Source: Clostridium phage slur17. Taken from it: DNA of 41,318 bases. Location of the stretch: sequence record LN881738.1. One strand, given 5' to 3'. Of the stretch, positions 3,008 through 41,318 are shown piece after piece. How positions within the stretch are numbered: the stretch's first letter is position 1; each line of letters opens with the position of its first letter. Under the pieces are notes generated by a model. That model saw nothing but the letters and a program-made list of their open reading frames with translations, was not told the origin of the DNA and searched no databases. Both the position numbers and the translations under genes were made by a program.

Positions 3008-3763
3008 TTATAAAATATTCCATCTAGGATTTATTTTTATGCTTTTTATATCCCCTTCCCAGCTAATCTGATTTTCTCCTTCTTCAAGTATGGGAAAGTC
3101 ACTAAAAAGCTTATTATTTTCATTTACAATAATGTTATTTTCTTTGTTTATTCTATATACATTCATCTGTTCGCTATCTATTATTAAGTCGCTTAAAATT
3201 CCATTTTCTGCCACCCCTCTTAGCACTATGCTTTGAGTATTTATTTTTATACTTATGTCCCCTGCTCCTTCTATATAGAGAACAGGTTTTGACTCTCTAT
3301 AGAAATTTGTTATAGTAGCACTCTTTAGATTTAATACATTTAAACTTATAATTTCTTCTTCTGCGTATCTAAAAGGGTAGCAGTCGAATGTTAAAAGACA
3401 TGATGCAAAGTTTTTAAAATTTCTAGTTATATCTAGTTTATTGTTACAGCTTGCTAGATAATAAAAGTCACTATTACTTAAAAAAAGTTTTTTATATGAT
3501 ATATCGCCCTGTAGCCATTTTTTTATTTCTGTTGCAACTTCTTCTATATTACTTTGTCTTGCATCTATATCGCATTCTATTGTAAGCGTAAAATTTTCAA
3601 AACCTTTTTTTAGTAGTAAATCTCCATCTTTGCCTGGCACACTCACTCTTTCAACTTCCATCTGTGGAGCTGATAAGTCGTTTATATTGTATATTTTTAA
3701 ACCAAATTCTCTGCTGTCTCGACCGTTATAAACGAAAAACATAGCTTTATGCCCTCCTCTCAT
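3008..3763 (-). CDS. Distal tail protein (Dit-like)
   Basis: 251-aa ORF directly downstream of the tape measure gene, the canonical Dit position in siphovirus tail modules; call by synteny only. Confidence 0.55.
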   Translation of the reverse strand: MRGGHKAMFFVYNGRDSREFGLKIYNINDLSAPQMEVERVSVPGKDGDLLLKKGFENFTLTIECDIDARQSNIEEVATEIKKWLQGDISYKKLFLSNSDFYYLASCNNKLDITRNFKNFASCLLTFDCYPFRYAEEEIISLNVLNLKSATITNFYRESKPVLYIEGAGDISIKINTQSIVLRGVAENGILSDLIIDSEQMNVYRINKENNIIVNENNKLFSDFPILEEGENQISWEGDIKSIKINPRWNIL

Positions 3764-3862
3764 TTATTATTTTTTAGACATAACTCCGTTTTTGTAGTTA
3801 TATTTTTTACTATAGTCTTTTCAAAAAAGATAAAAGGAAATATAAAAAAGAAAAGGAACATT

Positions 3863-6800
3863 TTATAAAGCTCCTTTTCTTTTTGCTAAGAACAATATTT
3901 CATCAAAAAGATTTTCTATATCTTGTTGTCTATTATTTACAAAGTTTTCTATATTAAGTTTAATACCTGCTTGATTTTCATTAGCTTCATCAGCCTTATT
4001 ATTACTCATTATAGCTGTTTCTTTTCCAGCTTTAAAATCTGTACTTGCAACTATATTAGCTTGTATTTTAGACGTTTCAAAATTAACTGTAGCTTTTAAT
4101 TTACCTGTAAGTTCAGATATATTTTTCTCTATTTTTTCTTTCAAGCCTGGCGTTTCTACATCTATTCCAACGCCGACCCCTTTTACAAGATTTCTACCAA
4201 TTAAATCTCGCATGATTATGGAAGGTGAATGCACTCCAAAGCCGTCTCTAAATCCATCTATAACATTACTAGCAAAATCAAGGACTTGGTCTTTTAACCA
4301 GCCACCCATGCCCGTTATACCTTCCCATAAGCCTCTTACAACATCTTTCCCGATACTCATAATTTTACTAGGCAAATCTTTCAAAGCATCCTTAACAGCA
4401 TTTGCCATATTTTTTCCAGCTTCTCCAGCTTGTTTGACTAAGTTAGTCCCCCAGCTTATGACATTTGAAATGATATTGTCTAGCCATTCTCTAAATTTTC
4501 CTGGAAGCTGGCTAACAGTATTGTATATATTGTTAAAAAAGTTTTTCGCTGTTTCTAAAGCTTTTTTAGATAAATTAACTTCCCACTCCATGACTTTTTG
4601 CATTATATTAGTTAATTTTTCCCATATTTTGCCCGGAAGTTCTGAAAAGAATTTCATTATATTTTCTAAGAATTTGCTTCCTGTTTCTAATGCTTTTTGA
4701 ATTAGATTAGAACCCCATTCCGAAACTTTTCCCATGATATCTGTAAACTTTTCCCATAATTTTCCCGGAAGCTCCGAAATTGGAATTAATACATTGTCAA
4801 CAAATTGATTAAAAATATCTGTTGCCAATTGCTTTAAATTTTCGCCCCAGCCACTTATTGTTTCTACTACTGTATTAAACCATTCCGAAATTCTTTCGGG
4901 TAGCTCTGTAAAAAACTGTGTTATATTTTCCCAAATTGCACCAAAAAACTCTGAAACAGAAACCTTGAAATTTTCGCCCCAAGTTTGAATATTTTGCAAT
5001 ATGATACTAAAAAATTCCGAAATTTTTTCCGGAAGGCTTACAAACCATTCGACAATGCTATTTATTATTTCTGGTAATGTTTCTGTTGCCCAGGCGTACA
5101 GATTAGCTCCTAAATCAACGAAAAAACCAGCAATAGACCCGATTACAAAACCAATATTATATGGAATTTGTTTAAACCATTCGACAATATTATTTATTAT
5201 AGCTGGCATTGTCTCATTAAAGAAACTTGATATTTTTTCTCCTATTTTCCCACATTCTTCTTTTATCTTGTCGCCAATACCCGCAAACCATTTTGGTACT
5301 GTGCTAGTAAAAAAGTCTAAACCACTTTTTAATCCGCTTCCAATTGCATCTCCAATTTTTGACCCAGTCTCTTTGAACCAATTGCTAAGACCGCCGAAAA
5401 TCTCTACAGCTTTATCTTTTATACTTGAAAAACCTTGCTGTGCCTTATCTCCAAACTCTGTAAAAAAGTCTCCAGCTCCTGCAAATCCTTCACTTATTTT
5501 ATTTCCAAGACCACCAAAAAATCCACCTATATTTTCAATTCCTTCTTTGAATTTATCTTTTACTTTAGAGAAGAAATCACCAATAGAATTTTTTGCACTA
5601 GCTAGCCACTCATTTATATTTTTGTCTGTATCTCTTAGCCATTTTTCTATTCCACCAAAAAAACCACCAATGCCATTGAACCCTTTTTTTATACTTTCAG
5701 ATAATTTACTAGCTGAATCCCCAACTTTAGGGACTGTTCCTGTTACGAGTTCATCACTGACAAGTTCTAAGCCTTCAACAGAAGTTTTAACATCATCTAT
5801 GCCATCAGCATATTCTTCTAGTTCTCCAGCGTCCAGTTTGGCAGAACCAGAATCCAAAGAGGAACTTTTAGCAGATGAGTCTACATCCCCTCCACTTGCG
5901 CTAGAAGTATTAGCTTTTTCTTTTAGTTTCTCATATTCTTCTAACTTTTTCTTCAATCTATCAAGCTCTTTTTCTTGTGCTGGTATAATCTCTTTTAAGT
6001 TAATAGCTTCCTTTACAGCTTCCTGGATAGATTGCTTTTTAGAGTTAACTCCATTTAACAAACTATCTGCTAAACTCTGCCCTGCATCCTGCCAATGCGG
6101 GTTATATTCACTTAAAAGTTTTATAATTTCTTCTGAATTTTTTTGTAAAAGTAGCCTTCTCGCTTCATTTTGAATATTTGTCTCTTCTAAAAGTTCACTA
6201 AAATATTTTTCAATTTCTTCTTTTTGACTAGCATTAGACTCTTTTATCAATTCAAGTTTTTTACTTTCTGCTTCTTTTTGATTGTCGTACTCTTCTTTGT
6301 ACTGCTCTTTTTTGTTACTAGCTTCTGTTTTTATATTTTCAATCTGTTCTTTTAATCTGTTTTTTTCTTGTTGCCTTTGTTCATCTAATAATTTCTTCTG
6401 TCTATCTGATTGTGCTTCTGATATTTCTTTTTGTATTTTTTCTCGTTCTTTTTGATTTTTAGCTGTTGCTAGTTTCCTGTCAAGGTCGCTTATTTTTTCA
6501 TTGTACGCTTTCTCTTCTTCTGCTTTTTGTTCTTCTTCAATTTGCTTGTCTATGGCGTCAATTTGTTCTTGTATAGCATTAGTTTTCTCATTTGTTTCTG
6601 TATCTAAATACTTTAATTTCTCATTGTATTCTTTTTCATAGACCTTTAATCTATCATTTGATGCCTTTTCCTCAACTTTTAGTCTTTCATCAAGCGCTTT
6701 TATTTGTATATCTTTTTGACTTTCATATTGATTTTTTAATGCTGTAGTTATAGCCTCGCAAATTTTTTCAAATTTACTCTTGTTGGTCTCAAGATTTTTT

Positions 6801-9166
6801 TCCATAGCACTTATTAATTCTTTTGTTGCCTCTACTACATCTTTGCTTGTATTTTTTATACCATTAGCAAATCCAATGCCTGCAAATTCTCCAAGTTCTG
6901 TTGTAACTTTAGACGGTGAATGTATTCTTAGTACTTTTTTAAATGTATTAACTACAGTTAAACCGATATTTTTTACAGTATCTACAACCAAACCGATACC
7001 GCTCGAAAGCCCATTTATTATCCCAGCTATTATGTTTTTTCCAAAGGTAACAAAGCCTTTTACAACACTAGAAAAGAAACTAAAAACCTTATTTTTAAAA
7101 CTTACACAACTATTATAAATAGCTTTAAATCCATTTACAAAAGGGCTTAATAACATACTTCCTATACTTTTCCAGTTATTTTTAATAAAACTTAAAACAT
7201 TTTTAAAGATGCCTACAATTTTGTTAAATATAGAATTTACAGTGTTTCTAAAACCTTCACAATTATCGTAAATTAATTTAAATGCTCCAATGAACGGATT
7301 TACTAAAATTAATAATAAGCCTTGCCAGTTACTCTTAATAAAAGACATTGTTTTGCTTAAAGCATCTTTAATGCTGTTAAATAATTTATTTATAGTATTT
7401 CTAAAACCTTCGCAATTATCATAGATTAATTTAAAACCACCAATGAAGGGATTAACAAGTAATAGAGCCAATCCTTGCCAATTTTCTTTTGCAAAGTCTA
7501 TAAATTTACTCATAGCTTGCGGTATTGTTTCAGTAAAGAATTTAGCAATTTGACCGAATATTTTCTCCCCAACTTCTTTAATATTATTCCAAATATTTAT
7601 AACGGCATCTCTGAAACCCTCATTGTTTTTCCAGAGCGATACGAATCCCGCAATCAAAGCCCCTACTGCTACTATAGTTAAACCAATCGGACCACCAAGC
7701 GCCGTTAATGCACCCTTCCACAAATTAGTTGCTACTTGCGCTAAACTTATTTTTTTTGTAACTAATCCAACTATAGTTTCATACAGCGTTAACGTAGTTC
7801 CTGATTCTGCCATCCCTGTGACGAACAGCCTTACAGCAAGTTGCGCATCTGTAAAGCTTTTTTGTATACCCCTTACAATTCCAGCAATTTTTAATCCAGC
7901 GAAAGCAACTCCAATCCCTGTTATCAAAGGAGCTACAAGGCTACCATGCTGAATCAAGAAGGTTATAACATTGATTAAAGGGGTTAATGCTAAAGATATT
8001 AACTTTACAACTGTTCCAATTAACGCACCAATGCTTTCTGCTGTACTTCTTATAGCATTTTTTGTATTTTCGTTTTGAAAAGCCTTAGCAAATTTATTTG
8101 CCAAATCATTTAAAACAGGAAGCAATCCCTCTGCAATTGGAAGAAGTAAATTAACCTGCATTTGCCTTCCAATTCCTGTTATCGCTTCTCCGAAACTATT
8201 GTATTTTATCTTATTAATTTCTTCTAATTTATCTTTTGAACTGCTTATACTTCCTTCGATATTTGTTAGCGCTGTTACTGCATCCGCTTCCAAATCCTCA
8301 AACTTAGTACCAAAGAGTTGTACACCTATCTGATTTTTTAATACATTATCATCTAAATTATTTAAAGCCGTTGTAACCTCAACAAAAGCCTCTTTTGCAC
8401 TACTTCCACCATTTGCAAATTTCTTAGTTAGTTCGTCAGCATTAAAACCGAGCGCCTCAAAAGCTTCCTTAGTTCCATTCGAACCGTCTTTAGCCCTAAT
8501 ATTAAATTCTTTCAAAGCGTCATTTAGATAGTCTATTTGATAGACTCCACTCTCTGCCCCGTTTTTCATCATATTAAACATTTCTTCTGCTGAAAAACCC
8601 ATCTGTGCGTAATATGTCGAATATTCTGCTAACTGGTCTCCGAGGTCATCATTCTGATTTAATCCTTGTTGTGCTCCCTGTGCAATCAAGTTGTACGACT
8701 CTTTTGCGCTAATACCAAATTGGCGCATCATGGAGTTTACGCCATTTAAACTTTCCCCAACATCCATGTCGAAAGTATCCCGCATCATAATCGCACTTTC
8801 AGTAACTTCTTGAATATTGCTAGCGTCTATCCCATCAAGCTTTTGAGATATTAAACTCATAACTTCGCTTATATCGCCCATGTCCTCGCCAAAATTATTT
8901 GCATAGACCTGCTGTAGCGCTTCTCCAAAGCCTTTTGCCTTAGCTTCCGCATTTCCCGTTGCTGACTCGAAACCATTCATTGCCTTTTGGTATTCATCCC
9001 CAAAGTCAATAGCCTGTTTTCCTATAGCTCCCAGACTTGCGCCAATTCCAGCTATCGCAAGAGCGCTTTTTGCTTTCTTCTTCATAGTATCAGCTAAGTT
9101 ATTAAGTTGTTTCTCTGCATCTTCGGTATTTAAAAGGGTATCTATAATAATAGAACCATCTGCCAT
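3863..9166 (-). CDS. Tail tape measure protein
   Basis: 1767-aa protein with N-terminal helical region, long Glu/Lys-rich coiled coil, several hydrophobic segments and multiple internal tandem repeats (IYDNCEGFRNT units; W..E....LPGK units); lies between tail chaperones and Dit. Confidence 0.9.
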   Translation of the reverse strand: MADGSIIIDTLLNTEDAEKQLNNLADTMKKKAKSALAIAGIGASLGAIGKQAIDFGDEYQKAMNGFESATGNAEAKAKGFGEALQQVYANNFGEDMGDISEVMSLISQKLDGIDASNIQEVTESAIMMRDTFDMDVGESLNGVNSMMRQFGISAKESYNLIAQGAQQGLNQNDDLGDQLAEYSTYYAQMGFSAEEMFNMMKNGAESGVYQIDYLNDALKEFNIRAKDGSNGTKEAFEALGFNADELTKKFANGGSSAKEAFVEVTTALNNLDDNVLKNQIGVQLFGTKFEDLEADAVTALTNIEGSISSSKDKLEEINKIKYNSFGEAITGIGRQMQVNLLLPIAEGLLPVLNDLANKFAKAFQNENTKNAIRSTAESIGALIGTVVKLISLALTPLINVITFLIQHGSLVAPLITGIGVAFAGLKIAGIVRGIQKSFTDAQLAVRLFVTGMAESGTTLTLYETIVGLVTKKISLAQVATNLWKGALTALGGPIGLTIVAVGALIAGFVSLWKNNEGFRDAVINIWNNIKEVGEKIFGQIAKFFTETIPQAMSKFIDFAKENWQGLALLLVNPFIGGFKLIYDNCEGFRNTINKLFNSIKDALSKTMSFIKSNWQGLLLILVNPFIGAFKLIYDNCEGFRNTVNSIFNKIVGIFKNVLSFIKNNWKSIGSMLLSPFVNGFKAIYNSCVSFKNKVFSFFSSVVKGFVTFGKNIIAGIINGLSSGIGLVVDTVKNIGLTVVNTFKKVLRIHSPSKVTTELGEFAGIGFANGIKNTSKDVVEATKELISAMEKNLETNKSKFEKICEAITTALKNQYESQKDIQIKALDERLKVEEKASNDRLKVYEKEYNEKLKYLDTETNEKTNAIQEQIDAIDKQIEEEQKAEEEKAYNEKISDLDRKLATAKNQKEREKIQKEISEAQSDRQKKLLDEQRQQEKNRLKEQIENIKTEASNKKEQYKEEYDNQKEAESKKLELIKESNASQKEEIEKYFSELLEETNIQNEARRLLLQKNSEEIIKLLSEYNPHWQDAGQSLADSLLNGVNSKKQSIQEAVKEAINLKEIIPAQEKELDRLKKKLEEYEKLKEKANTSSASGGDVDSSAKSSSLDSGSAKLDAGELEEYADGIDDVKTSVEGLELVSDELVTGTVPKVGDSASKLSESIKKGFNGIGGFFGGIEKWLRDTDKNINEWLASAKNSIGDFFSKVKDKFKEGIENIGGFFGGLGNKISEGFAGAGDFFTEFGDKAQQGFSSIKDKAVEIFGGLSNWFKETGSKIGDAIGSGLKSGLDFFTSTVPKWFAGIGDKIKEECGKIGEKISSFFNETMPAIINNIVEWFKQIPYNIGFVIGSIAGFFVDLGANLYAWATETLPEIINSIVEWFVSLPEKISEFFSIILQNIQTWGENFKVSVSEFFGAIWENITQFFTELPERISEWFNTVVETISGWGENLKQLATDIFNQFVDNVLIPISELPGKLWEKFTDIMGKVSEWGSNLIQKALETGSKFLENIMKFFSELPGKIWEKLTNIMQKVMEWEVNLSKKALETAKNFFNNIYNTVSQLPGKFREWLDNIISNVISWGTNLVKQAGEAGKNMANAVKDALKDLPSKIMSIGKDVVRGLWEGITGMGGWLKDQVLDFASNVIDGFRDGFGVHSPSIIMRDLIGRNLVKGVGVGIDVETPGLKEKIEKNISELTGKLKATVNFETSKIQANIVASTDFKAGKETAIMSNNKADEANENQAGIKLNIENFVNNRQQDIENLFDEILFLAKRKGAL

Positions 9167-32312: not shown

Positions 32313-32399
32313 CTTTTTCTATAAAAGAAGGTTGCTTTTTTTCTTAGCCTTCTTTTTTTTAAATTTTACTATAATATAAAAATATTACTGTAATATTAT

Positions 32400-32585
32400 A
32401 AAAATATTATTTTAGTATTGTATATACAATATTTTAGTATTTTTAATATAATATATTGGTATTGTAAAAGCAATATGTAAATATTGTATTTATATTATTT
32501 GAATATTGTAATTAACAATATTAATATATTGTTGCAATATTATAAAAACAATACTACAATATTATTATAATATTATAAATATAAT
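32400..32585. repeat. AATATTGT-type repeat array upstream of parA (centromere/operator-like)
   Basis: Many direct and inverted copies of AATATTGTA / TACAATATT, e.g. AGTATTGTATATACAATATT, GAATATTGTAATTAACAATATT. Confidence 0.55.
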
Positions 32586-32591
32586 AATGAG

Positions 32592-33743: not shown

Positions 33744-33749
33744 ATAATA

Positions 33750-33860
33750 TTATATTTATATTGTTTAGATATTACTTAAATATTGTATATATAATATTTA
33801 AGTAATATTTTAATATTATTATTACAATATATTAATATTGTTTAAATAATATGTTTTAAC
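33750..33860. repeat. Second AATATTGT-type repeat array, downstream of the partition genes
   Basis: AAATATTGTATATATAATATTT and TACAATATATTAATATTGTTTAAA; same motif family as the array upstream of parA. Confidence 0.5.
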
Positions 33861-34210: not shown

Positions 34211-34400
34211 TCCGCATAGTTAATCTAAAATTGGATATTATATTATTTCTATATAAATTAAATTGACATTTAAATCCCTCATAGTTAATCTTAAAATTCT
34301 TATTACAATATTATTTCTAAATAAATTAAAAAATATTTTAAATCCCTCGTAGTTAATCTTAAAAGCGATACTATATACATTAATAATAATACTCTTCTAC
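34205..34400. repeat. Three tandem imperfect direct repeats of about 66 bp
   Basis: Core TTTAAATCCCTC(A/G)TAGTTAATCTTAAAA recurs at about 34215, 34280 and 34348 with similar intervening sequence (ATTATTTCTA.ATAAATTAAA). Confidence 0.6.
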
Positions 34401-37816: not shown

Positions 37817-37901
37817 AACTTTCCTCCTAATTTTGATTATTTATTTTTTATATAAAAAAAGATTAGACTATTAATCTAATCTTTTAGATGACTTATAAAC
37901 A

Positions 37902-39752
37902 TTAAATTGCTTGATACATTGCGTAAGTAAAATAACCGTCTCCGCTTTGGTCATATCTAGCCCCGCCTAATGTTATAAACTTTTTGGTTTCATCTTTATA
38001 GCCATTTCCTCTGCCTGCTTCTATACTTGTATTGTAGCCATGATACACAATTCCATAATAACTATTACCTTTATATCCATAACAATAAGTTATGCCTACA
38101 TAAGTACTATTAATAGTTTGCGGTGGGTTATCATCAGCATCCGCAAAGCCTGTGATAGTTCTAAAATAAGCAGTACTTCCTTGTATTGTGTTCTGTATAT
38201 TATTTTTGTAAGTTTGTAAAGTTGAATTTTTGCTAATTAATATGCTTTTAGCTGTATTACTTTTAACCATTCTGTTAAGTGCAAGTCCTGTAAGTGTTAT
38301 TTTGGTCATAGCCGTTGAGCTATTTGCAATTATGCCCATTGCTGTTGTATTATTTACAAAAACACTTATAGACGTATCGTTATTTGCAACTGTCGACATA
38401 GCTTGTGCGTTATTTGCAATTATGCCCATTGCTGTTGTATTATTTGCAATAGTAACGTTATTTTCTGAAATAGTGAGCATAGCATTGAAAGCAGTAGAGT
38501 TATTTGCTATCTTAGTAAAAGCAGTAGTTTTATTTACTAAAATATTTATAGCTGTTGTACTTTTCATAAAAGCATTTAATGACACTGTTTTACTGAAAAT
38601 ACTTTCTATAATTCCCACTCGGTCACCAACTTTATTTACTATAATAGAATTATTTGCAAAAGTTGCCATTGCGATTGAACTTTCTAAAATTGCATCCGAA
38701 ATTTTTATTTTTTCCTCAATATCTCGTTGTGATATATTACGTGTGGTTTCCATACCATCATAATTTTTTACTGCATTTTTTAAAATCGGGAATATTTCTT
38801 CATTATAAGTTATTGCCATAATTTGACCTTTACCAGAAGCAATATTTGATTTTATTGTATTTATATAATTTAAAGAAGTTTGTAAATTATACTTCATTTC
38901 TAATAAATTAGGGATTATTTTTTCAACAGTAACATTATTAGTTAATATTTTATTTATGCTATTTTGGTTTTGCACTAATACTTTTGTAGCTTCTAAGTCA
39001 TTAAATATTTCCATTACGGAGTTTTCGTTACTTGAAATTTGTGTCATAGCTTCATCACTATTTATAATCGCATCCCTAATCACATTATTTTTTAAAATTG
39101 CTCTAATGACTGGTGACTCTGTTGTAACTCTTAAAATATATTGACCTAATAAATCCATAGCATTTGAACTTGCTACAACTGCGTCCATGCTTGATTTACA
39201 CATAGTTAAAGCTACTATTGCATTACTATTATTAAGTATTGCATTAGTAGCTTCCACATTTGCTAATATTTCTTCTATAGTTGTAAGATTTTCTAAATCA
39301 GTATTATCTAAGCTAAAAGTAGAATTAAACCATGCTCCTATAGTTGACTTTTCTTGTTCTCTTGTAACATATCTATCATACCCTGCTTTAAATTTTTCCT
39401 CTAATGAATTATAATGCTCTATAGTCATTTCTTTTACTACATTATCAGCATTTCCTAAGCTAAATATATCTGTTCTATAAAAGGCATTTAATTGTTCCCC
39501 TAGCTTAGTGCTTTTATTAAATAAATTATCAATATCAGTTTCTGAAAAAGCTGTGTAAACTGTTTCTCTTATTCCTCTATCAGAAAATAAATATAAACTA
39601 TTTAAATATAATTCTTCCCATATCCTAGCATTTCCAATAAACAGCACATAACTATCTAATCCATTTAGTTTTATGTCTTGCAAATAACTTAAAAAATTTA
39701 GTGGCTCGCCTTGCAAGTCACTATTCACTTTGTATGTCTCCGCCCAACTCAT
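37902..39752 (-). CDS. Tail fibre / receptor-binding protein with tandem 19-20 aa Asn/Thr/Ala repeats
   Basis: 616 aa; repeats such as NNTTAMGIIANNAQAMSTVANNDTSISVF; Gly/Tyr-rich C-terminal globular region; start overlaps the upstream fibre stop by 1 nt. Confidence 0.6.
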   Translation of the reverse strand: MSWAETYKVNSDLQGEPLNFLSYLQDIKLNGLDSYVLFIGNARIWEELYLNSLYLFSDRGIRETVYTAFSETDIDNLFNKSTKLGEQLNAFYRTDIFSLGNADNVVKEMTIEHYNSLEEKFKAGYDRYVTREQEKSTIGAWFNSTFSLDNTDLENLTTIEEILANVEATNAILNNSNAIVALTMCKSSMDAVVASSNAMDLLGQYILRVTTESPVIRAILKNNVIRDAIINSDEAMTQISSNENSVMEIFNDLEATKVLVQNQNSINKILTNNVTVEKIIPNLLEMKYNLQTSLNYINTIKSNIASGKGQIMAITYNEEIFPILKNAVKNYDGMETTRNISQRDIEEKIKISDAILESSIAMATFANNSIIVNKVGDRVGIIESIFSKTVSLNAFMKSTTAINILVNKTTAFTKIANNSTAFNAMLTISENNVTIANNTTAMGIIANNAQAMSTVANNDTSISVFVNNTTAMGIIANSSTAMTKITLTGLALNRMVKSNTAKSILISKNSTLQTYKNNIQNTIQGSTAYFRTITGFADADDNPPQTINSTYVGITYCYGYKGNSYYGIVYHGYNTSIEAGRGNGYKDETKKFITLGGARYDQSGDGYFTYAMYQAI

Positions 39753-41318
39753 TAACTCACCTCTTCTTTTATTTCTTCTATTTGATTACCTTTAAAAGTC
39801 GTTTTTACTTTACTTACTAATACATTATCTATATATTTTTCGTCTACTATAGTCCCATCTGCATTAAATTTAGTTATAGTTTTACTAACCGAGTCTAAAA
39901 TATCTGTTATAGAGCCGTCTGAATTAAAAGTCGTGCTTTTTTTAATGTAATCTAACTCTTTCGGTTTTTCTAATAACTCATTCCATGTAACTTTTCCTTT
40001 TGACGCTTTCCCCGTGTCTTCTCCATTTATAAACCAATTACCGTTTTCGCCGATTGCTGGAGTATAACCTTGTTCCCCTCTAAGCTCTGTATATATATAT
40101 TCCGTTTGTCCTTCTTCTCTAATACCTAGCTGACTTCCATTCCAATTAAATTCTAATTTATTTCCTGTCGCTCCTTTTAGATTTGTATAGCTATAGTCCT
40201 CTTGACCTTCTATTCTAACGCCTAGCTCCGTACCATCCCAACTAAATTCAATGCTATCGCCTTTTTGACCTTTCAAATCTGTATAAGTATAATTCTCCTG
40301 TCCTTCTATCCTTACACCTAGTCGTGTGCCATCCCATGCAAATTCGATATTGTCACCTTTGAGGTCTATATACTTATAATCTAATTCGTATTGTTGCCTA
40401 ACGCCTAACTGTGTGCCATCCCAATTAAATTCTAGGTTCTTGCCGTCCACGCCCGCTAGAGAACCTAAGTCTTCCCATTTAGTTTGATATATATAAATAT
40501 TTCTCCCTATAATCCAGCAATCTCCGATAGTAGGGTCTAATGGTAAGTTATCTATAGAATCTAATTTTCCTAAAATCCTCAAAGATGCCCCTCTAGCTGG
40601 TTTTTGGGTATCTATATTATTAATCCACCAGTTTCCATTTTCTCCTATTGTTGGAGTATAACCCTGCTCCCCTTTCAATTCTGTATAACTATAATTTTCT
40701 TGACCTTCTATCTTTATACCTAATCGTGTGCCATTCCAATTAAATTCAATACTATCACCTTTATCGCCTTTTTGACCTTTTAAATCTGTATAAGTATAAT
40801 TCTCCTGTCCTTCTATCCTTATACCTAGTCGCGTGCCATCCCAATTAAATTCTAAGCCATCTCCATTTTCACCCTTTATTTTTATGTCAGGAACTTTGAC
40901 CCAATTAGTGTTGTCCCAAACATATAAATCAATTTGGTTTTCTATTGTTGCGCTTTTTACAAAGTAAGCATCACTTAAAGTTGGATTGACTGGAAGTGCT
41001 GATATATTATCTAAACTTCCTTTTATTTCTATTCCTACCCCTTTTAACTCTTCTTTTGTGGGGATTGCATTAATAGCGTCTGTAACTTCTGTCTGCATAG
41101 TTTCTTTAGCTGTAGTTACTTCGCTAATCATAGTATTTTTAGCTGTTGTAACTTCCGCTTTAACTGTGTTAACTTCGTCTATTAATGTTGTTTTAGTAGT
41201 ATTAACATCACTAATCATGCTGTTTTTAGCGTCTGTAACTTCTGTAACTTTAGAGTCGAAAGTTTCTTTTATACTATTAAATTCTTCGACCCTTTTACCT
41301 TCTGCGATTTCTAATTCT
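39752..41318 (-). CDS. Tail fibre protein with six ~30-aa tandem repeats; N-terminus lies beyond the window end
   Basis: The frame is open from 41318 down to the stop at 39752; the ORF track starts it at an internal Met (41218). Contains coiled-coil heptad-like units (EVTDAKNSMISDVNTTK) and six copies of (L/I)EFNWDGTRLGIRIEGQENYTYTDLKG. Confidence 0.6.
   Translation of the reverse strand, partial: ELEIAEGKRVEEFNSIKETFDSKVTEVTDAKNSMISDVNTTKTTLIDEVNTVKAEVTTAKNTMISEVTTAKETMQTEVTDAINAIPTKEELKGVGIEIKGSLDNISALPVNPTLSDAYFVKSATIENQIDLYVWDNTNWVKVPDIKIKGENGDGLEFNWDGTRLGIRIEGQENYTYTDLKGQKGDKGDSIEFNWNGTRLGIKIEGQENYSYTELKGEQGYTPTIGENGNWWINNIDTQKPARGASLRILGKLDSIDNLPLDPTIGDCWIIGRNIYIYQTKWEDLGSLAGVDGKNLEFNWDGTQLGVRQQYELDYKYIDLKGDNIEFAWDGTRLGVRIEGQENYTYTDLKGQKGDSIEFSWDGTELGVRIEGQEDYSYTNLKGATGNKLEFNWNGSQLGIREEGQTEYIYTELRGEQGYTPAIGENGNWFINGEDTGKASKGKVTWNELLEKPKELDYIKKSTTFNSDGSITDILDSVSKTITKFNADGTIVDEKYIDNVLVSKVKTTFKGNQIEEIKEEVS

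Follow-up and report, generated by a model that had tools for sequence, protein, structure and literature searches.

The receptor-binding protein (RBP) gene of Clostridium phage slur17 lies at positions 37902–39752 of sequence record LN881738.1, a stretch of 41,318 nucleotides (nt) that is analysed here at its full length as "the window". The gene carries repeats, which raises the question of what these repeats build and whether their number changes. An earlier note, made from the sequence alone, described a second fibre with Asn/Thr/Ala repeats of 19–20 amino acids (aa), whose expansion or contraction would alter the fibre length. Our analysis indicates with high confidence that the gene encodes the RBP of a phiCD38-2/CDHS-1-type siphophage, that the repeats are 10-residue helix units of a superhelix, and that such units are gained and lost modularly in the family.

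The window belongs to a C. difficile siphophage resembling phiCD38-2 and CDSH1 (genus Leicestervirus). The DNA of the gene is 100% identical to that of Clostridium phage CDSH1 and 99.9% identical to those of phiCD38-2, phiCD146, and AR1075-1. All of the residues of the window protein (616/616) match PDB 7QLR chain A with 100% identity (1306.8 bits). CDHS-1 Gp22, which also corresponds to gp21 of phiCD38-2 and of phiCD146, is the same as the window protein in sequence, genome position, and fold, and no difference was found. The window protein is a known RBP that has already been crystallised and functionally tested, and the window itself contributes nothing new. Antiserum to Gp22 neutralises CDHS-1, and the recombinant protein binds to C. 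difficile cells (Dowah et al., bioRxiv 10.1101/2021.07.05.451159). In the same work, the crystal and gel filtration showed a stable U-shaped homodimer. Each chain has a right-handed alpha-helical superhelix (529 residues, 42 helices, three helices per turn) that is L-shaped and in which Gln13–Thr158 form the short arm, and the long arm consists of 29 helices of 5–14 residues separated by loops of 1–3 residues. The hairpin alpha24/alpha25 juts from the long arm and makes the dimer contact as a four-helix-bundle crossbar, and the C-terminal beta-sandwich binds Mg2+ (10.1101/2021.07.05.451159). The word "repeat" is used in this preprint for experimental replicates only, without mention of a 10-aa periodicity, 30-nt DNA repeats, or copy-number variation (10.1101/2021.07.05.451159). 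phiCD38-2 gp21 has been treated as the predicted RBP, and the S-layer protein SlpA has been shown to be the receptor; infection by phiCD38-2 and phiCD146 is restored by S-layer cassette type (SLCT) 11 and that by phiCD111 by SLCT-6 (Royer et al., PMC10100898).

The term "second fibre" agrees with the database labels but not with the protein itself. PDB 7QLR is entitled "CDHS1_22 putative tail fiber protein", phiCD38-2 gp21 is annotated as "tail fiber protein", and the window protein matches PHROG 7809, which carries the same label. The gene is also the last of the siphophage tail module and stands directly before the holin and endolysin genes. A classical trimeric tail fibre, with the repeats as a beta-structured or coiled-coil shaft, would fit these labels and this position. 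The crystal and gel filtration, on the other hand, gave a homodimer of alpha-helical superhelices with a beta-sandwich head, the AlphaFold2 (AF2) model is all-alpha up to residue 525, and no domain, including any tail-fibre domain, was found in the window protein by Pfam and NCBIfam scans. From the identity with 7QLR and the papers on Gp22 and gp21, the product is therefore an RBP and not a trimeric fibre. 7QLR refutes the trimeric form, unless the protein on the virion is built differently from that in the crystal, and we regard a trimer as highly improbable.

The two DNA segments that the earlier note placed around 38320–38360 and 38408–38450 are indeed nearly identical, although each measures 36 bp and not 40 bp (38320–38355 and 38410–38445; 35 of 36 positions identical). 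The 36-mer has no further match in the window with up to three mismatches (0.00 expected from 100 shuffles), and a repeat search extended the likeness of the two copies to 53 nt at 89%. The copies are not adjacent: their spacing is 90 nt, or 30 aa, which equals three units and, because Gp22 has three helices per turn, one superhelical turn. The tandem arrangement and the richness in Asn, Thr, and Ala were likewise confirmed, but the proposed period of 19–20 aa was not. Tandem Repeats Finder (TRF) gave a period of 30 nt, a separate repeat search of the gene also gave 30-nt spacings, and the BLOSUM autocorrelation of residues 381–520 has peaks at lags of 10, 20, 30, and 40; the unit is thus 30 nt or 10 aa. 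The unit consensus of the array is (S/T)-T-A-M-N-x-I-A-N-N. In the 10-aa register, 17 consecutive units occupy residues 359–528, and six more are present at residues 213–269, so that the repeat region is far larger than the two segments first noted. Promoter-like matches within the repeats were not above those in shuffled sequences (14 vs 14.3).

An assembly or sequencing artefact as the source of the near-identical segments can practically be dismissed. Repeats do disturb short-read assembly here, as partial proteins of 430–485 aa ending in the repeat region attest. The segments, in contrast, recur at 99.9–100% identity in five phages that were sequenced independently of one another (CDSH1, phiCD38-2, phiCD146, AR1075-1, and the window) and are also present in the crystallised protein.

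An AF2 model of the window protein, built from 21 homologues, was used to place the repeats on the fold. Its top Foldseek match is 7qlr_A (E = 5.5e-63, template modelling (TM) score 0.72). The predicted local distance difference test (pLDDT) score is above 90 at residues 240–616 and below 50, i.e. poor, at residues 1–136. The hairpin at residues 273–356 and the strands at residues 530–615 are arranged as in the Gp22-type architecture. Between them, the model has 17 consecutive helices in a strict 10-residue register over residues 359–525 (359–366, 369–377, 379–386 ... 516–525). Since the helices follow the exact register of the repeats, one repeat unit comprises a helix of 8 residues and a linker of 2 residues. 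The six units of the first part of the long arm show the same pattern (helices 213–220, 223–230, 233–240, 243–250, 253–260, and 263–269). The array at residues 359–528 is the stalk that joins the dimer crossbar to the head (Table 1). The conserved N-terminal part presumably attaches to the tail tip, and the C-terminal head, which is the most variable part of the RBP across the family, is presumed to be the SlpA-binding tip. A pentapeptide-repeat or beta-helix interpretation of the Asn-rich units was dropped, as the AF2 model and the crystal description agree on an all-alpha solenoid.

Table 1 Features of the RBP gene and its 3' flank in the window.
Feature	Coordinates	Strand	Basis and remarks
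RBP gene	37902..39752	minus	Open reading frame (ORF) call; 616 aa + stop; = phiCD38-2 gp21 = CDHS-1 Gp22
Short arm of L-shaped superhelix, aa 1–158	39279..39752	minus	Gln13–Thr158 in the crystal paper; 84–100% identity over 20 homologues
First part of long arm, aa 159–272	38937..39278	minus	Includes six 10-aa helix units at aa 213–269 (AF2)
Antiparallel two-helix hairpin, aa 273–356	38685..38936	minus	AF2 helices 273–312 and 322–356; four-helix-bundle dimer crossbar in the crystal
Stalk, 17 consecutive 10-aa units, aa 359–528	38169..38678	minus	AF2 (pLDDT 93–97); autocorrelation; unit table
Near-identical copy 1	38410..38445	minus	36-mer, 0 mismatches; encodes aa 436–448 ANNTTAMGIIANN
Near-identical copy 2	38320..38355	minus	36-mer, 1 mismatch; encodes aa 466–478 VNNTTAMGIIANS
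Array core still visible as DNA tandem repeat	38307..38450	minus	TRF: period 30 nt, 4.8 copies, 61% matches
C-terminal beta-sandwich head, aa 529–616	37905..38168	minus	AF2 strands 530–615; Mg2+ in the crystal; 19–69% identity among homologues
A+T-rich 13-bp hairpin, then U run (probable intrinsic terminator)	37850..37885	minus	RNA folding; directly after the RBP stop codon

The repeat count was compared among relatives. Of the 227 homologues obtained from 5.8 billion proteins, 120 were listed, all of them from Clostridioides, and the length and array counts given here cover these 120. Their lengths run mostly in 10-aa steps (596, 606, 616 ... 766 aa), and 84 of the 120 end in 6. Perfect tandem 10-aa arrays are present in 88 of them. 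These are mainly two independent arrays, with the units MNAVASSQIA (about 1–18 copies) and SSSTAMSAIA (about 2.5–10.5 copies). At the DNA level, the 30-nt units are 100% identical, with 8.0 and 5.5 copies in phiCD24-1, 10.0 and at least 5.2 copies in phiCDKH01, and 18.0 copies in a chromosomal prophage. When the perfect units were collapsed, the 120 proteins were reduced to 57 skeletons, and a single skeleton of 596 aa was common to 21 variants of 626–696 aa. Proteins with identical skeletons differ in copy number only, and the two arrays vary independently. As 21 length variants have one skeleton, the copy number changes faster than point substitutions accumulate. In the 766-aa relative with 18 perfect units, AF2 gave 18 further helices, one per unit, with pLDDT of 92–98. 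Homologues nearer to the window also differ by whole units: the pairs P0006/P0007 (616/606 aa) and P0015/P0020 (618/628 aa) become identical after collapsing, and P0010/P0011 (606/596 aa) are one 10-aa block apart in the alignment. Relative to the window, phiCD111 carries a single clean insertion of 30 nt at ~38327, the end of near-identical copy 2. The earlier note had named a lack of length variation among relatives and a buried location of the repeats as observations that would speak against it. Neither holds for the family, as the repeat count varies and the repeats form an exposed stalk in the AF2 model and the crystal description.

The proposed mechanism is as follows. The 10-residue helix-turn units stack three per turn into the right-handed alpha-helical superhelix, and the 17-unit stalk joins the dimerising hairpin to the beta-sandwich head, which presumably contacts SlpA. 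Since every unit is complete in itself and comprises 30 nt in frame, helices could be added or removed without breaking the fold. Replication slippage or unequal recombination may add or remove helices in this way, and we infer that slippage is the mechanism. The two 36-nt segments are probably the remnant of a duplication or of gene conversion at equivalent positions of successive turns. With each unit gained or lost, the stalk changes by a third of a turn, and we infer that its length or the head orientation matters for adsorption.

Several observations weigh against this reading when it is applied to the window itself or to adsorption. All complete listed members of the 90%-identity cluster of the window allele are 616 aa in length, and two of these sequences alone account for 102 and 28 contigs. 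In the phiCD111-type cluster, every complete listed member has 627 aa. Perfect or near-perfect head-to-tail units were not found in the window array, which shows 61% matches and one 36-nt pair; because its DNA is degenerate, slippage there should be rare. Perfect units of the variable-number tandem repeat type are present in relatives (100% matches over 5.5–18 copies). Copy-number polymorphism among otherwise identical alleles was found in those relatives and not in the window-type cluster. The statement that expansion or contraction alters the length thus stands for the family, given the 10-aa steps, the skeleton variants, and the additional unit of phiCD111, but not visibly for this allele, which is 616 aa in every complete listed cluster member. 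A preference for whole turns was also sought in the unit number of the homologues and was not detected (30:23:23 modulo 3), whereas some constraint would be expected if the head azimuth mattered strongly.

Short-read assembly is a further reason for caution. Among the "partial" RBPs in public C. difficile assemblies, those of 405–470 aa end at phiCD24-1-type arrays, many of them at ~405 aa where the array starts, and the window-type ones of 430–485 aa end within the repeat region on ~41-kb contigs. Since short-read assemblies break at the arrays and may collapse them, the copy numbers of individual relatives need to be read with care; about 30 length variants sit on contigs of more than 1 Mb. 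The "complete genome" of phiCDKH01 (MN718463.1, 1–1722; MiSeq/SPAdes) terminates inside the perfect 30-nt array of its RBP gene, and this record end is probably a short-read assembly break. The RBP homologue in that record is unannotated, and a 220-aa antisense ORF of the repeats (phiCDKH01_66) is annotated instead.

The same length data can be explained by selective neutrality, in which a solenoid stalk tolerates the gain and loss of units and slippage generates the arrays without any effect on the host range. The absence of a modulo-3 constraint agrees with this explanation, as does the copy-number spread, which is broad and unimodal (1–17 extra units, with a peak at 5). The single-length state of the window and phiCD111 alleles in the complete listed cluster members also agrees, indicating that variation is not needed for success. 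Conversely, an RBP in which up to 18 units of 30 nt are perfectly identical and two arrays vary independently shows the pattern of loci under diversifying pressure. Neutral variation is a serious candidate, to which we assign somewhat less than an even chance.

Another explanation is that the repeats serve mainly as homologous crossover sites for swapping the head and distal stalk between lineages, with the length change as a by-product. The family is mosaic: in 20 aligned homologues the first 240 aa are 79–100% identical to the window, while the hairpin, stalk, and head fall to 9–70%, and the heads (19–69%) belong to several unrelated types. The megablast match to phiCD111 covers query positions 440–1851 and stops at ~38341, inside near-identical copy 2, where the one-unit indel is also located. 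As the similarity ends within a near-identical copy, the repeats may also be crossover points for head exchange. A parallel exists in the haloarchaeal virus phiCh1, in which both tail-fibre genes flanking Int1 carry 30-nt repeats with the same decapeptide motif and inversion yields variable length and C-termini. Crossover leaves unexplained, however, the proteins with an identical skeleton and an identical head in which the copy number alone differs, and the window has neither a second or inverted copy of the repeat region nor an adjacent recombinase. We judge crossover as the main role of the repeats to be close to an even proposition but just short of it. It is compatible with slippage and does not exclude it, and modular gain and loss of helix units by slippage or unequal recombination is the reading retained here.

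In the genome, the RBP gene is preceded by the gp20/Gp21 tail fibre gene and followed by the lysis genes, a holin and an Amidase_3 endolysin according to PHROG and Pfam matches and the phiCD38-2 annotation. The hairpin directly after the RBP stop codon has a predicted folding energy of −11.2 kcal/mol (z = −3.25), and none of 200 shuffles folded equally well. It is likely an intrinsic terminator separating the tail from the lysis genes. It was found by folding only; a GC-based terminator scan around the RBP gene gave no call. A 177-aa ORF on the plus strand at 38230–38763, with a hydrophobic periodic sequence (LFAIMPIAVVLF...), was rejected as a gene and regarded as an antisense by-product of the repeat array.

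The upstream fibre gene contains repeats of its own. The homologue of phiCD38-2 gp20 (an 820-aa tail fibre) is split over the window ends at 1–640 and 39752–41318 on the minus strand. phiCD38-2 gp20 has a tandem repeat of 76 aa (228 nt) in three copies, with the motif at residues 158, 234, and 310, and the homologue in phiCD111 has 744 aa instead of 820 aa, a difference of exactly 76 aa, which indicates that the gp20 fibre also varies by whole repeats. The window was opened inside this repeat. A 99-nt exact repeat occurs at 29–127 and 41192–41290, and the reading frame is lost when the window ends are simply joined, pointing to a break or collapse of the contig at the gp20 repeat. The C-terminal half of gp20 (39752–41218) has separate repeats of ~32 aa (LEFNWDGTRLGIRIEGQENYTYTDLKG), recognised by TRF at 40173–40360 (period 96, 2.0 copies, 74% matches). 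A+T-rich intergenic tandem repeats form clusters at 32371–32588, 33745–33859, and 34215–34364; their periods are 22 and 33 nt, and a unit of 68 nt is present in 2.3 copies. Judged by position, these clusters are a few kb past the lysis genes, in the part of phiCD38-2 that contains its ParA-like partition gene, and they could be partition or replication sites of an episomal prophage.

The present analysis adds a structural account of the repeats, in which one unit is one helix and three units are one turn, and finds the same stalk in sister prophages as a highly polymorphic in-frame tandem repeat. This bears on the prediction of C. difficile phage host ranges and on the engineering of RBPs for phage therapy or Avidocin-like agents. 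It is also a concern for annotation that short-read assemblies systematically fragment at these arrays. The copy-number polymorphism in relatives looks unreported: neither it nor a link to phiCh1 was found in the literature searched, the coverage of which was incomplete, so that this absence is weak evidence.

Close counterparts of the window protein are the RBPs of phiCD24-1/phiCDKH01-type prophages of C. difficile (e.g. CEK40236.1). Their N-terminal 240 aa are homologous to the window protein (84–97% identity), and they share its architecture of a superhelix, a hairpin, a stalk of 10-aa units, and a beta-rich head. They differ in that the stalk contains two perfect 30-nt arrays of varying copy number, whereas the window array is degenerate and fixed at 616 aa, and in that the head is of another type with about 20% identity. 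More widely, HMMER run exhaustively over 1.84 billion cluster representatives identified 148 relatives at E ≤ 1e-3. Some share the N-terminal arm, and others, including some very large proteins, share the repeat-plus-head part only. The best internal period was 10, 20, 30, or 40 aa in 118 of the 137 relatives long enough for the test. Chains of at least three xA(M/L/I/V/F) motifs at 10-residue spacing were present in 65 of 147 relatives and in none of the shuffled controls. Pfam and NCBIfam scans of the window protein and distant relatives gave no curated family for the decapeptide unit.

The stalk resembles Armadillo/HEAT alpha-solenoids in that short helices are stacked into a superhelix. 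Among PDB entries, Foldseek ranks beta-catenin and importin-alpha directly after 7QLR, but these matches are weak (E ≥ 0.008, TM ≤ 0.28). An Armadillo repeat has ~42 residues in three unequal helices, while the window RBP has three near-equivalent 10-residue units per turn.

In BFVD, the viral protein whose fold best matches the window RBP is one labelled "repeat-containing" in Halobacterium phage phiH (E = 1.1e-8); metagenomic tail fibres and phiCh1 proteins come next. The TM-scores are low (0.24–0.28). The phiCh1 (NC_004084.1) tail-fibre genes ORF34 and ORF36 (3247–4617 and 5917–7203) contain 30-nt repeats encoding SQTAMDAVSD; the ORF34 array has a period of 30 with 7.7 copies at 95%. This unit has the same core motif as the window unit (S/T)TAMxxIANN and the same size of 10 aa or 30 nt. 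A pairwise BLASTP comparison of ORF34 with the window repeat region gave E = 5e-12, which owes its strength to the repeats and is possibly inflated by them. In phiCh1, phiH1, and the window alike, the repeats stand ahead of a C-terminal adhesion domain, and the hosts have S-layers. Recombination within the 30-bp repeats of phiCh1 has reportedly been described. In phiCh1 (ORF34/ORF36, Int1) and phiH1 (PhiH1_165/185), a tyrosine recombinase lies between two oppositely oriented fibre genes, whose 3' ends are exchanged by inversion. In the window, blastn and tblastn detected neither an inverted nor any other second copy of the repeat region, and the RBP gene has the holin and endolysin genes, and no recombinase, next to it. 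The window is therefore not a member of the phiCh1/phiH1 inversion system, though it uses the same building block.

These similarities allow a broader proposal, which we put forward tentatively and consider rather unlikely as a whole. The helix unit might act as a genetic "length dial" of RBPs, with phiCD24-1-type arrays rapidly sampling ~1–18 copies and shifting the reach of the head, and its azimuth by one third of a turn, in adaptation to SLCTs or as bet-hedging. The window allele would then be a "frozen", diverged array, and the (S/N)xTAMxA(V/I) module would be homologous to the phiCh1/phiH1 repeats, an ancient bacterial-archaeal stalk module that is not in Pfam. Motif and fold, in any case, tie RBPs of this "new class" to haloarchaeal viral tail fibres that contain repeats and are phase-variable.

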